NCBI GenBank assembly: GCA_964413645.1
Contig: CAYPSA010000005.1
Location: 2,820-66,819 of the forward strand
DNA from: an uncultured Gammaproteobacteria bacterium
GTDB lineage: Bacteria; Patescibacteriota; Microgenomatia; UBA1406; HO2-37-13b
Direction of reading: 5' to 3'
DNA: 64,000 nt
Both the position numbers and the translations under genes were made by a program. A model generated the notes under the pieces. The model worked only from the letters and a program-made list of their open reading frames with translations. It did no database searches and had not been told where the DNA came from. This document shows, piece after piece, positions 33,831-39,890 of the stretch (positions within the stretch are counted from its first letter, which is position 1; every line of letters starts with the position of its first letter).

Positions 33831-34094
33831 TTATATCCGAACAACGTCAATTCCTAGGAAGATATTTACTTCATTATTTAACACCTCAATAATGCCCGAA
33901 TCGATGGTAAATTCTTTTTTTTCCTGTCCCTTATTATTAACCGTAATTGATTTTTTTATAATCGAGATAAACTGAGTGTGATATGGAAGTACATCAAAAA
34001 CTCCACGTTCGTTAAAAGTTGTGATTGACTCAGCTTGCCCTTCGTACACAATTTTATCTGCATCATGAATTGTAACCTTAAGCGAAGTATCCAT
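33831..34094 (-). CDS. atpC: F-type ATPase epsilon subunit (beta-sandwich domain only)
   Basis: 87 aa, last gene after atpD. LKVTIHDADKIVYEGQAESITTFNERGVFDVLPYHTQFISI fits the epsilon N-terminal domain. The C-terminal helical hairpin is absent. Confidence 0.75.
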   Translation of the reverse strand: MDTSLKVTIHDADKIVYEGQAESITTFNERGVFDVLPYHTQFISIIKKSITVNNKGQEKKEFTIDSGIIEVLNNEVNIFLGIDVVRI

Positions 34095-34095
34095 A

Positions 34096-35472
34096 TTATT
34101 GATTGATCAAGTCTTTTACGCCTCCAATATACAAGAATGTTTCAGCTGGGAAGTCATCGAACCGGCCTGAAAGGATTTGTTTCACGTCATCAACTGTTTG
34201 AGCAACGGGAATGTATTGTCCTTCTTTTCCTGTTTGAGCTTTGGTTACATAGAAATTTTGAGTCATGTAATTTTTAAGAATCTTCGCTCGTCGATAGAGA
34301 GTTTGGTCACTAGCAGAAAGCTCAGATTCTCCTACGAGCGACACGACACGGTCGAGTGAGAGTGCTTTTTTCAATAAGCTCAGAGAAGCAATAGCGCTTT
34401 CATAATGATCTTTTCCCACAATATCTTCATTTAGTCCCCCCGATGTCGATGCGAGCAGGTCGATTGCGGGGAAATGACCTTCCTGATACACCTGACGTGA
34501 AAGTACGATGGTGGAGTCTAAGTAGGGGAATACGGCCTGCACTCCTTGATCAGTAATATCATCAGATGGAACGTAAACCGCTTCGATCGACGTAATTGAT
34601 CCATCTTTATACGAAACTAAACGTTCGTGTAAGTCGGCCATTTCTGAGGCAAGCGTTGCCTGATATCCACCCTCTGATGGAATAGAGTTCATAAGCGTGG
34701 CCAGCTCATATCCGGCTTGAGCAAATCGAAAAATGTTATCGATAAAGAACAGTACATCTTTTTGCTCTTTGTCTCGGAAGTATTCAGCCATGGTAACACC
34801 AGCAAACGCAGTTCGAAATCGAACCGCGGCATTTTCACCCATTTGTCCATAAAGCAATGCGACTTTGGGCAACACGCCACTTTTATCGAGTACGTTATAC
34901 AATTCATGACCTTCTCGGATACGTTCACCCACGCCGGTAAAAACAGATACTGCTTTGTCTTTGTTCAAAATAACTACATTATGAATAATCTCCGTTAAAA
35001 GTACGGTTTTTCCAACACCTGCTCCTCCGAACAAGCCTACTTTACCACCACGTAATACTGGAGAAAAGAAGTCAATTGCTTTAATGCCTGTTTCAAGCAT
35101 TTTATTCGGAGAAACAACTTTTTCCATAGCTAACGGTCGACCAAAAATAGGCCATTCATCTGCGGTTTTTATGTCTCCTTTTCCATCTTGGGCAGTACCA
35201 AACATGTTAATAACGCGCCCTAACATACCTGCTCCAACAGGAACCTTAAGCGGCTGCATGGTATTTTGCACTTCGCAGCCGCGCCACAAACGCTCAACGT
35301 GCGATAAGGCTAAGCAGTAGTAAATCGATCCTTCGGTAGAACTATATACTTCGAGTCGTACTTTTGGATCTTCTTTGAGAATGAGAATATCGTTCATTGC
35401 TGGTGGAGTTCCCGGAAAATGAACTTCGACTACATTTCCTTTAATTGCAGTAACGGTTCCTTTATTTATCAT
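34096..35472 (-). CDS. atpD: F-type ATPase beta subunit
   Basis: Walker A motif [12 protein letters not shown] and DNIFRF...[10 protein letters not shown]. Start placed at ATG 35472 (MINKGTV), which is preceded by GGGAGG about 12 nt upstream. Confidence 0.95.
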
Positions 35473-35474
35473 AG

Positions 35475-36353
35475 TTATAATTTTCCTCCCCATAATGAAA
35501 TACCCGACATGCGTTCTTGTTGTGTCTTATTATTAATTAGACGAGATATTCGACGTCTTTCATTATAGAGATTATTTTCCTTACCATCAATACGATCGAG
35601 TGCAAATTCCATAGCGGTAATACGCGAAGCAAACCGGGCCAGTTGTGACTCGTGAACCGTTTGTTTAAAAAGAGCTGAGAATATCTGTTTTTCAAAGTAG
35701 TCCACAATGTCTTCGAGCTTGGGTTCAAATAGGAATGCCTCATTGTTCCCAGTATGAACTTCCTTTTCCATAATCGCATCACCGGTAATATTGGTCATCT
35801 GGGCAACTTGATCAAGCATACTATTGTATTGTCCGTAAAAAACAGTAATCTTTTCGTACTCAAGTAAGTGGTAAACAATCGTCCGCAAGTCTTCGAGTGC
35901 AACCTGCATATCTGGTATCTCAAAATATAGATATTCTTTTTTCTTTGAAGATGGAATTAAACGTTCGTATAATTCTCGTCCTAGTTTTCCAATAATAATC
36001 ACGTCCGCTTCATTACTAGTAATATACTTCTCGAAAGATTGAAAGACATTGTCAATAATTACTCCATGTAGCTTTGCGTTTGCAGAAATGAATACCGCGA
36101 CTGTTTTTCCATTTTTTCGAGCAGTTTCTTGTGCGGCTTTATTCTTTTTCTCGTCCTTTTTAAGATCATCTTTGTATGAAGTTTTTACGTGGTAATACAC
36201 TTTCGCAAGCTTGGTATAAAAGGTTCGTGTTGCAAGTACCATGCCTCGTACGCGCTGCATGTTCATAACTGAAATTTCTTCATACGAAGTACATAAAACT
36301 CGTAAACTCGAGAGTAATCCGATTTCGTCTTTAATTTGGCGGTAGCGTTGCAT
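35475..36353 (-). CDS. atpG: F-type ATPase gamma subunit
   Basis: 292 aa. Operon position and the C-terminal helix ...[49 protein letters not shown]. Confidence 0.85.
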
Positions 36354-36355
36354 GG

Positions 36356-38425: not shown

Positions 38426-38926
38426 TTATCCAAAAAACCCACCTTTTCCTGCTTTTTCTATAGCATCGATAACGAGTGATTCATGGGTTTTTACGTCAAT
38501 GGTTTTGCCTAGAACATTGTGGGCGATTTCAGTTACCTTTTTAGAAACAAGAGTGTCGAGTGCGAGTTCTTTAGATTTTTTGTATTCAGCCAATTCGGCC
38601 TGAACTTTTGTGAATTCTGCTGCAATTTTTGTTTCAAGTAATGCAGAGCTATCTGATAGCTGTTTTTGCACGTTCGTATTAAACTCCGCAAGAACTTTAT
38701 CGATACCTGCTTTCATTTCAGCGTCAAGACGTTTTACTTGAGTCTCGACCGCGGACTTCATACCAAGTGCTGTTTGCTCTTTTAATGAGTCGGTAAGTAA
38801 CTGTGTTTGGGTCAGTAGTTGCTGTGCGGCGTCAACGGCTTCTTTTATGATTGACTGCGCTTTTTTATGAGCATGTAAAACAATGTCCTCTTCACTTTGC
38901 TGATTTTTTCGTGAAAATATATTCAT
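38426..38926 (-). CDS. atpF: F-type ATPase peripheral-stalk subunit b-like protein lacking a TM helix
   Basis: 166-aa Ala/Lys/Glu/Gln-rich helical protein in the atpF position. No hydrophobic N-terminal segment is present (MNIFSRKNQQSEEDIVLHAHKKAQ...). Confidence 0.55.
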   Translation of the reverse strand: MNIFSRKNQQSEEDIVLHAHKKAQSIIKEAVDAAQQLLTQTQLLTDSLKEQTALGMKSAVETQVKRLDAEMKAGIDKVLAEFNTNVQKQLSDSSALLETKIAAEFTKVQAELAEYKKSKELALDTLVSKKVTEIAHNVLGKTIDVKTHESLVIDAIEKAGKGGFFG

Positions 38927-38928
38927 AG

Positions 38929-39732
38929 TTACAGTCTAATAATTACTAATGCTAATATCAATCCTGCGCCGATAATAGCGACGGTTATAACGACGTTAAT
39001 AATAATGCCAAATTGAATCATGCGCGAGGCAAGTGGGTTTCGGCCGAGCGCTTCCACACCGGTTCGGGCAATTCTTCCAAAATACCAGAAGCCAAATACG
39101 AACGAAGATATAACTACGATAGCCGCAATGACGTATTTAAATACAGTTAGTGGTTGTTCGTAGCTTGCAATTGCCGATAGTTTAAATATGTCTGACAGAC
39201 TGTTACTCAGAGTAAACGTGGGAGTAACATAATGTACATTTAGTGCTACCCGTAGTTTTCCTTCAGTAGCTTCTGGCTTAAAATCTTCAAGAGCTGTACC
39301 CAAAACATAGCCGGCTTGAGTACTCTTCACGCAGGTTCCTGCATCTGTCGACGAGGTTACGAGGTCGCCCTTTTTAATACTTCCTTCTTTGTTGCTGCAA
39401 TTGACCTGGGCAGTTCCACTGCTCACAACAGGGTAGGTTGCATCTTCACCTGCCACCACAAAAATTATCGCAGCATCATTTGAAACAACTCCGTTCATGG
39501 ACGAATCGTAGGGAATCCGGCTAAGAACGAAACCGGTAGCGGTTGTAGAAACGATATCGCCGTCATGGATAATTTTATCTTTGATTGGAACATTGTTGGC
39601 AACTGCGAATGAAGTGTTACTTTCATTTCCAGCCTCAATTGCAGTTAACGTTGGAGTTTGAGCATAGGCGATAGAAAAGGATAAAATCCAATAGAAAAAC
39701 AGTACGGAAACCAGAAAAATCCGCTTAAGCAT
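38929..39732 (-). CDS. Secreted-domain protein ending in an ATPase c-subunit-like TM hairpin (no ion-binding carboxylate)
   Basis: Signal peptide [24 protein letters not shown] (ATG 39732), then a ~190-aa extracytoplasmic region. This is followed by TM1, loop [20 protein letters not shown], and TM2. The loop resembles the c-subunit EG(A/I)ARQP(D/E)L loop. TM2 ([26 protein letters not shown]) has no Asp or Glu. Confidence 0.5.
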
Positions 39733-39738
39733 AGTCTC

Positions 39739-39744
39739 ACTATA
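39739..39744 (-). promoter_or_regulatory. -10 box TATAGT 6 nt upstream of ATG 39732 (head of the ATPase operon)
   Basis: Minus strand reads ttattgTATAGTgagactATG. Confidence 0.45.
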
Positions 39745-39890
39745 CAATAAAAATAAGGGGTCGTGTTAAGGATTTGCCGAGAGAATTTTGAGTTTCTGCC
39801 TACGATTTCTAATTTTCCTATTGTAGTAATACGGCCTAATATACGGGTGGGGGTATACCGTATTTGATCCTGTTTTATAGCAATTTGCTC

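Follow-up and report, generated by a model that had tools for sequence, protein, structure and literature searches.

A seven-gene F-type ATPase operon of Microgenomatia and WWE3 with an ectodomain-bearing subunit c derivative and a linked family of giant fibre genes

Reviews of the Patescibacteria see the ATPase of these bacteria as an ordinary F or V/A complex whose purpose is puzzling; those published up to 2026 ask why organisms without a respiratory chain keep an F-type ATP synthase, and assume that it makes ATP or pumps ions. The closest described systems to the one reported here are the F1-like X0 ATPases of mycoplasmas. Types 2 and 3 are encoded by seven-gene clusters with alpha-, beta-, gamma- and epsilon-like genes and a gene for a protein with 12 transmembrane (TM) segments, and have neither b nor delta (PMC12994834, PMC3369863, PMC11864180). 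The Type 2 enzyme of Mycoplasma mobile, G1-ATPase, is a gliding motor (PMC11864180, PMC8406192), while Type 3 is associated with MIB-MIP and is encoded by the cluster MMCAP2_0575-0581 (PMC12994834, PMC3369863). In F1-like X0 ATPases the alpha subunit lacks its N-terminal helix and surface proteins depend functionally on the ATPase (PMC12994834, PMC3369863), and one protein combines a signal peptide, an ectodomain and two C-terminal TM helices (PMC12994834). In Type 3, ATP hydrolysis is thought to drive changes across the membrane (PMC12994834, PMC3369863), and a small protein is predicted to bind the C-terminus of alpha. Here we describe a seven-gene F-type ATPase operon on the minus strand (39732-33831) of a 64-kb stretch of DNA, called the window below (contig CAYPSA010000005.1 of assembly GCA_964413645.1, positions 2,820-66,819, forward strand), in which the place of the subunit c gene, atpE, is taken by a gene for a larger protein, here called X.

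The operon reads X, b-like, delta, alpha, gamma, beta, epsilon, with adjacent genes overlapping or 1-2 nt apart. This is exactly the order given by an earlier reading made from the DNA letters alone (the sequence-only reading), and from the c position onward it is also that of the canonical F1Fo operon (atpBEFHAGDC). We hold the following description of the system with high confidence: an intact F1; a hairpin derived from subunit c that has an invariant F1-binding loop and no membrane carboxylate; an exported domain on the same polypeptide; no subunit a nearby; an epsilon that lacks the inhibitory domain; and linkage to genes for giant surface fibre proteins (FIB).

The longest open reading frame (ORF) of X opens at a TTG at 39747 (268 aa), and the ATG at 39732 gives a protein of 267 aa that begins MLKRIF. 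From its N-terminus X consists of a signal peptide (aa 1-24, predicted cleavage between AYA and Q), a beta-rich ectodomain, an amphipathic helix (aa 180-192) and a c-type hairpin. The sequence-only reading had listed it as a 268-aa unknown and had concluded that the operon lacks a c gene, a conclusion that does not survive, as the C-terminal 75 residues are a c-type hairpin by Pfam, by profile comparison and by superposition of the AlphaFold model. The Pfam family ATP-synt_C matches the hairpin of the window protein below its cutoff (E = 8.5e-4, 20 bits vs 24) and matches 11 of 28 members of the X family. All six top matches of a hairpin profile in the PDB are F-type c subunits, each of them weak (E 0.1-1.1), and the alignments are in register, with the RNP of X opposite the RQP loop of c; when the isolated hairpin is compared with NCBIfam, subunit C is again the best match, also weak (E = 0.017). 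The AlphaFold2 model of X, built from an 85-sequence alignment (pLDDT 85), contains a signal-peptide helix, the beta-rich domain, a short helix and a hairpin made of aa 194-231 and 233-266. Foldseek superposes this hairpin on c subunits from many species with a root-mean-square deviation of 1.5-1.9 Å over 66-72 residues (TM-score 0.7-0.85, 20-27% identity). The predicted topology is that of canonical c, with the loop in the cytoplasm and the ectodomain outside. The C-terminus is the best-conserved region of the X family, whose members fall into more than 1000 clusters at 90% identity, are about 250-290 aa long and are nearly all unnamed; a few already carry the JGI label COG0636 (subunit c). 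The protein in the atpE slot is a derivative of subunit c.

Residues of the hairpin were counted in 81 unique X sequences anchored on the RNP motif. Like canonical c, X has the c fold and an R-N/Q-P loop; unlike canonical c, it has a signal peptide and an extracellular domain, and the essential Glu/Asp is missing. None of the 81 sequences has an Asp or Glu in either membrane helix, and the column equivalent to the Glu (+18 after the Pro of RNP, according to the HMMER alignment to canonical c) is hydrophobic (V38/I26/L8/A5/F2). The cytoplasmic loop, G-V/I-E-A-L-G-R-N-P-x-A, is invariant, and in helix 2 an Asn (+13) is invariant and a Thr (+17) is found in half of the sequences. Canonical c contacts gamma and epsilon through the equivalent loop. 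With the loop invariant and the Glu-equivalent column hydrophobic, the residue pattern says that X has kept F1 binding and given up ion binding.

The ectodomain, of ~130 aa, has its own structural relatives. Its Foldseek matches in the PDB are phage capsid proteins of the cement or decoration type, namely a Pam3 protein (8hdt_G, E = 3e-4), gp53 of XM1 (7kmx_a) and the base of the phi29 head fibre (6qvk), and weak Pfam matches to XM1_gp53 and Phage_cement_2 are consistent with these.

Subunit a and a canonical c were sought in the window and in a comparison set of 80 related loci, each with flanks of up to 10 kb; in all, about 1.2 Mb of sequence around related operons was scanned. A phmmer search with E. 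coli AtpB found no a subunit in the window or the 80 loci, a search for the Arg-bearing helix of a (RLFGN-type motif) found none in the same set, and the only c-like matches there were the X proteins themselves. Pfam tags on two further loci (L081 and L082) include neither ATP-synt_A nor ATP-synt_C. The sequence-only reading was thus right that the operon has no a gene; none is seen in the rest of the 64-kb window or in the related loci either, a difference from canonical F1Fo. Some other conserved membrane protein was considered as a substitute for a, and none emerged from ORF clustering of the 80 loci and the window, in which the recurrent neighbours of the operon were GH130, PBP1A, MreB, a PEGA protein, a histidine kinase and Ndk.

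The F1 part is clearly F-type. Pfam and NCBIfam recognise alpha, beta, gamma and epsilon. Beta scores above the atpD equivalog cutoff (TIGR01039, 480.6 vs 462.85 bits) and aligns to 6q45_D with E = 2e-122, and alpha scores below both atpA-type cutoffs (TIGR00962, 393 vs 484; NF009884, 444 vs 554). Because the catalytic motifs of both alpha and beta are intact in residue-level alignments to solved F1 structures, as in canonical F1Fo, F1 looks catalytically competent. Two subunits differ from their canonical counterparts. Epsilon is a beta-sandwich only, as the sequence-only reading had it, and has no C-terminal helical (inhibitory) domain; the same holds family-wide (median length 98 aa). This domain brakes hydrolysis in canonical enzymes. 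Alpha is short at its N-terminus, by ~14 aa in the window, and family-wide only 12-13 residues precede the equivalent of residue 26 of Bacillus PS3 alpha, with most of the N-terminal helix missing. That helix binds delta in canonical enzymes. At its other end alpha is extended by ~70 Thr/Ser-rich residues (36356-36570, residues ~475-546) that have no match in solved F1 structures; across the family alpha measures 460-593 aa. Two further alpha/beta-like matches, at 4210-5616 (+) in the window and at 3436-4752 in locus L071, were considered as a second rotary ATPase, and both are Rho (Rho_RNA_bind plus ATP-synt_ab).

As in canonical F1Fo, a coiled-coil b-like protein is present, and so is a C-terminal domain of delta. 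The b-like protein has weak matches only, to F-type b, V-type E, AhaH and SctL. Its ORF starts 2 nt past the stop codon of X and contains no hydrophobic segment, in agreement with the sequence-only reading, which had also seen no TM segment in frame upstream; an upstream start or frameshift hiding such a segment was rejected, given this spacing and the nine independent MAG (metagenome-assembled genome) lineages in which b is TM-less. The comparison with relatives alters what the absence means. Of 66 related operons, about 55 encode a b orthologue (211-296 aa) with one N-terminal TM helix, and among the operons compared only the window and L001, L002, L003, L008, L010, L051, L052 and L071 have a TM-less b, so that this difference from canonical F1Fo is a lineage-specific loss and not a defining trait of the system. 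Delta is recognised by its C-terminal domain only, at 21.9 bits vs a Pfam cutoff of 22.3, and its relatives score up to E = 3.5e-10.

A scan of one genome per GTDB species found 217 relatives of X, in Roizman-, Levy-, Woese- and Amesbacteria, other Microgenomatia, and WWE3. An exhaustive X profile search returned 624 clusters at 50% identity (E <= 1e-30); among the best 150 of these 624, all but a few have members of 245-300 aa. The full order from X to epsilon is kept in about 70 of the 80 related loci, with X directly upstream of b in about 65 operons, and since the same operon recurs so often the arrangement is not due to chance. The nearest homologues of beta (60-97% identity) all come from Microgenomatia/WWE3 lineages and are named 'F0F1 ATP synthase subunit beta'. 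Many of the MAG records involved carry other names: the titles for loci L002, L006, L009, L011 and many others read 'uncultured Gammaproteobacteria bacterium', and other operon-bearing GTDB representative MAGs are titled Sulfotelmatobacter, Eisenbacteria, Methylomirabilota or Limnocylindrales. Such titles, on MAGs with a Patescibacteria-specific operon, look like mislabelled submissions.

Departures from the common order are informative as well. A complete 5-kb contig (L004) carries X, gamma and epsilon in a row (689-2675), without any of b, delta, alpha and beta. Such a rotor-only gene cluster links X to the rotor; the other subunits must be elsewhere or absent. In the WWE3 genome JAAXWF01, a 3384-aa fibre gene stands immediately ahead of b-delta-alpha-gamma-beta-epsilon without an intervening X (L081, 1-11683), and X is found on a different contig, where it diverges from a second fibre gene (L012). 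Stand-alone X paralogues without adjacent ATPase genes occur at L031, L033, L037, L040, L050, L053, L054 and L076, usually downstream of PBP1A and one or two GH130 genes; at least two of them (L033 and L040) share a genome with an operon X (pairs L009+L033 and L014+L040). At L050 the stand-alone X is followed by six ORFs (10826-20801), mostly paralogous, most of ~570-670 aa and with hydrophobic N-termini, the last of them cut by the locus end, and at L045 one such gene (10798-12543; 581 aa, seven predicted TM segments) stands between X and b. These ORFs look like glycosyltransferases.

The giant gene that diverges from X in the window had been taken by the sequence-only reading as a mere boundary of the operon. 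It belongs to FIB, a family of repeat-rich fibre proteins defined by BLAST, and its position is part of a conserved neighbourhood that canonical F1Fo operons do not have. Neighbourhood statistics were drawn from the 47 loci where both operon flanks are visible, and adjacency was scored where a FIB gene directly neighbours X in divergent orientation or is at most two genes away on the downstream side of epsilon. By this definition FIB adjoins the operon in 40 of the 47 loci, against a background of 3/369 (0.8%) for genes further away within the same loci. The linkage extends to WWE3, where one fibre gene precedes the b-to-epsilon genes and X stands beside another. Every FIB protein with a visible C-terminus also carries a homologue of the X ectodomain, found in the 5726-aa and 1104-aa proteins of the window, at L005, L011, L017 and L021, and in the WWE3 fibre; the copy in the 5726-aa protein has 34-43% BLAST identity to X ectodomains. 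Complete FIB proteins share a C-terminal F-N/D-W-x-I-x-N motif (...WSAIW in WWE3). A homologue search with the C-terminal module of FIB gave at least 22 matches, with low-complexity words crowding the candidate list. Concerted evolution of the X ectodomain and the fibre domain within a genome was considered and not seen; the two are old paralogues with 30-40% identity.

Table 1. Features of the 64-kb window that bear on the operon and its neighbourhood (window coordinates).
Feature	Position	Strand	Description
X, subunit c derivative	38929-39732	-	267 aa; ORF and sequence
X ectodomain	39226-39606	-	aa 43-169, beta-rich, phage cement/decoration-like fold
X c-type TM hairpin	38932-39153	-	aa 194-267; loop invariant, no membrane carboxylate
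b-like peripheral-stalk protein	38426-38926	-	166 aa, coiled coil, no TM helix
delta (OSCP)-like	37993-38442	-	149 aa; Pfam OSCP E = 2e-4, residues 68-146
F1 alpha	36356-37996	-	546 aa; Walker A GDRKTGKT, Arg finger SVTRVG
F1 gamma	35475-36353	-	292 aa; Pfam ATP-synt (PF00231) E = 6e-22
F1 beta	34096-35493	-	465 aa; Walker A GGAGVGKT, catalytic Glu in GERIREG, Walker B FFIDNIFRF
F1 epsilon	33831-34094	-	87 aa; Pfam ATP-synt_DE_N (PF02823) E = 6e-13, residues 5-79
Intergenic region, X and giant fibre gene divergent	39733-39929	.	sequence
Giant repeat-rich surface fibre protein FIB	39930-57110	+	5726 aa, N-terminal signal anchor
X-like ectodomain in giant protein	55917-56249	+	aa 5330-5440; hmmsearch with X-ectodomain profile E = 6e-27
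Second fibre-type protein	13165-16479	-	1104 aa; X-like domain aa 554-673; C-terminal FNWWIIN
Protein immediately downstream of giant gene	57161-63649	+	2162 aa; eight Laminin_G_3/ConA-like lectin stretches

Against this background the mycoplasma systems are similar in plan and different in parts. As in Type 3, F1-like alpha, beta, gamma and epsilon are joined to a membrane part that is not Fo, a signal peptide and an ectodomain precede two TM helices at the C-terminus of one component, alpha is without its N-terminal delta-binding helix, and the genes are coupled to those of large surface proteins in a genome-reduced, host-dependent bacterium. The likeness of the ectodomain/two-TM component is one of architecture (none of the NCBIfam models of the mycoplasma family matched X), and that of the surface proteins is analogous, not homologous. 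Type 3 lacks b and delta and includes a 12-TM protein together with a small cytoplasmic one, whereas the present operon has b and delta and no conserved polytopic protein, and X has 267 aa and a recognisably c-like hairpin, compared with 87 kDa for the mycoplasma component. Mycoplasmas have a genuine F1Fo in addition. The models MSC_0618, MSC_0619, MMOB1660 and MMOB1670 all fail on alpha and beta (score/cutoff 399/570, 263/520, 370/600 and 376/850). Both atpA/atpD-type models outscore the beta models and the MSC_0619 alpha model; MMOB1660 on alpha (370) comes close to TIGR00962 (393) and stays below NF009884 (444). G1-ATPase shares the general idea, an F1-derived ATPase proposed to pass force to giant surface proteins (Gli349, Gli521), and differs in the large N-terminal domain of its beta subunit and in its dimeric motors chained on a cytoskeleton, to which nothing here is comparable. 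The window beta matches G1 beta (9io5) at 3e-90 and true F1 beta at 2e-122, and the fibre proteins are unrelated. Membership in Types 2 and 3 was rejected on the scores far below model cutoffs, the retained b and delta, and the lack of a 12-TM protein.

Two other groups of F1 relatives were compared. N-ATPases (atpDCQRBEFAG) are likewise divergent F-type operons, and the alt_F1F0 models score well on alpha and beta; yet N-ATPases keep subunit a, a Na+-binding c, AtpQ and AtpR in another gene order, and membership was rejected on gene order and content and on alt_F1F0 scores that lie far below the cutoffs. FliH-FliI-FliJ and SctL-SctN-SctO also use an F1 relative outside ion-coupled ATP synthesis, with stalk proteins distantly related to b and delta, but the ATPase there is homohexameric, and an alpha/beta pair, epsilon and a c-type ring are all lacking; membership in the type III secretion ATPases was rejected on the features tested. 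Of the traits that define canonical F1Fo the system lacks two, the carboxylate of c and, within the range scanned, subunit a. It is best filed as a variant of the F-type ATPase that is convergent with, or parallel to, the mycoplasma F1-like X0.

The sequence-only reading had left two alternatives, a membrane sector encoded elsewhere or an F1 that is tethered and used differently. The evidence favours the latter, because a c-derived, carboxylate-less hairpin with an ectodomain fills the atpE position and no a is seen in the window or near the related operons. We propose that the complex is a clade-wide derivative of bacterial F1Fo in Microgenomatia and WWE3 that is no longer ion-coupled. X would assemble into a c-ring-like rotor on gamma and epsilon, and F1 would hydrolyse ATP, supplied by fermentation since these organisms are without respiratory chains. 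Torque or torsion might then cross the membrane to an extracellular crown of X ectodomains, which could engage the homologous domain of the fibre proteins and move, tension, reset or organise the fibres in adhesion, host contact or surface motility. The alpha3 beta3 hexamer would be held by b and delta, with b anchored by its TM helix in most lineages and soluble in that of the window. The functional logic would resemble that of the mycoplasma Type 2 (gliding) and Type 3 (MIB-MIP) F1-like X0. That the complex is an ATP-hydrolysing F-type motor, coupled to surface fibres and moving no ions, is in our judgement an evenly balanced proposition. The fuller picture of an ATP-powered rotary surface machine, in which F1 turns a c-ring-derived rotor with an extracellular crown coupled to giant fibres in Microgenomatia and WWE3, is a good deal more doubtful and is offered as a tentative model.

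Several points weigh against this proposal. Ring formation, binding to gamma and epsilon and the interaction of X with fibres are all steps that we infer from sequence. The adjacency of fibre genes might stem from shared regulation or surface biogenesis and not from mechanical coupling, and downstream fibre genes are probably transcribed separately from the operon, since they often lie 0.4-1.7 kb from epsilon. Without a and, in the window lineage, without an anchored b, the stator would have no evident restraint relative to the membrane. The likeness to the mycoplasma F1-like X0 is an analogy rather than a demonstrated homology, because alpha and beta are closer to genuine atpA and atpD. There is also a small chance that a and c genes lie beyond the scanned window and loci.

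This last possibility leads to an ordinary F1Fo synthase or proton pump, with a and c encoded elsewhere and X a c-resembling accessory membrane protein. Components can disperse, as the WWE3 X on a contig other than that of b-delta-alpha-gamma-beta-epsilon illustrates; the scans were limited to the window and the loci around operons; databases call these alpha and beta 'F0F1 ATP synthase'; and reviews assume a normal complex V in Patescibacteria. We nevertheless consider such an enzyme improbable: X itself fills the atpE slot directly upstream of b, its best-conserved segment is the F1-binding loop of canonical c, neither gene turned up in the sequence scanned around related operons, and the loss of the epsilon domain, the short alpha N-terminus and the loss of the b TM helix are signs that constraints have relaxed or changed. 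There would moreover be no precedent for a second, canonical c that competes with X for gamma and epsilon. Another reading, a decaying remnant in which F1 is soluble or loosely tethered and has a regulatory or moonlighting role while X is a surface protein built on an old c hairpin, might draw on the stand-alone X paralogues and on the b TM helix lost in some lineages. It is scarcely tenable, given that the seven genes are intact, translationally coupled and kept in order across hundreds of divergent genomes at 40-60% identity, that neither the catalytic residues nor the F1-binding loop of X vary, and that useless operons should be lost from the strongly reduced genomes of Patescibacteria.

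Two further explanations accept a changed function and place it differently. The strong linkage to fibre genes, the homology of F1 alpha and beta to FliI and SctN, the resemblance of b to FliH and SctL, and the domain that X shares with its candidate cargo would all suit an ATP-driven device for assembling, exporting or anchoring giant fibres, in which the hexamer energises secretion or insertion and no ring spins. Such a device is unlikely, if less so than a hidden canonical Fo: an alpha/beta heterohexamer with gamma and epsilon is a rotary architecture and not a homohexamer, the fibre proteins have ordinary N-terminal signal sequences that suggest Sec export, and we know of no lipid-plugged c-type ring that acts as a protein channel. 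Alternatively the X ring could conduct or pump an ion or small solute in a non-canonical way through the Asn and Thr of helix 2, with the b TM helix as a stator element. The invariance of N(+13) and the frequency of T(+17) fit this idea, as does the TM-anchored b kept in most lineages, and fermenters need some means to energise their membrane. The rotary ATPases characterised so far all depend on a membrane carboxylate in c together with an Arg in subunit a. Both are absent here within the range tested, the window lineage has lost even the b TM helix, and transport would leave the extracellular domain and the fibre linkage unexplained, so that we give non-canonical transport very little weight.

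We found no description of this variant in the literature, including Patescibacteria reviews of December 2024 and May 2026. For one large class, the Microgenomatia, the genes argue against an ATP-making or ion-pumping role, because no a is seen near the operon, the hairpin has no ion-binding residue and an extracellular domain is present instead; 'complex V present' in metabolic reconstructions of these organisms may be wrong. With a fibre-coupled motor this would be the second independent case, mycoplasmas being the first, in which an F1 motor has come to serve surface proteins in a genome-reduced, host-dependent bacterium, and it would offer a concrete candidate for the machine that underlies the giant surface proteins characteristic of these uncultured organisms. 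Retaining b, delta and a c-like ring, it would also be a natural intermediate for studying how rotary ATPases are repurposed. If the rotary surface machine is real, prokaryotes would have a third kind of rotary output device in addition to ion-driven flagella and archaella, serving host attachment, movement on hosts or attacks on them, and what is called 'ATP synthase' in a large part of the Candidate Phyla Radiation would not be a bioenergetic enzyme.

The remaining features concern the fibre genes and their surroundings. Between epsilon and FIB in twelve loci (L029, L042, L045, L048, L060, L061, L062, L065, L069, L072, L075 and L080) lies a conserved protein of ~360-500 aa with an N-terminal MerR-type helix-turn-helix, two TM segments and a C-terminal ...LVTRLGFVGIKRDLFFPRTSK motif, which could be a membrane-bound regulator of the module. 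A scan for consensus promoters and terminators gave nothing above chance. The repeats of the giant gene are long and near-identical (e.g., a 453-nt period in 2.7 copies at 46524-47752), and the opposite-strand ORFs of 120-520 aa at 40826-56869 are shadow ORFs of this repeat gene and not genes. Besides its lectin stretches, the 2162-aa protein downstream of the giant gene has neurotoxin-receptor-binding-like and sialidase-like domains, and on account of these domains it is probably a carbohydrate-binding adhesin. In the 1104-aa fibre-type protein a Peptidase_G2 IMC domain (aa 512-591) overlaps the start of the X-like domain, and the protein ends in FNWWIIN as the giant protein does; its gene is flanked by those of a TPR protein (11122-13164) and a phage-integrase SAM-like ORF (16466-16912). 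The one RNA gene detected in the window is a tRNA-Arg(CCT) at 63653-63726 (-).

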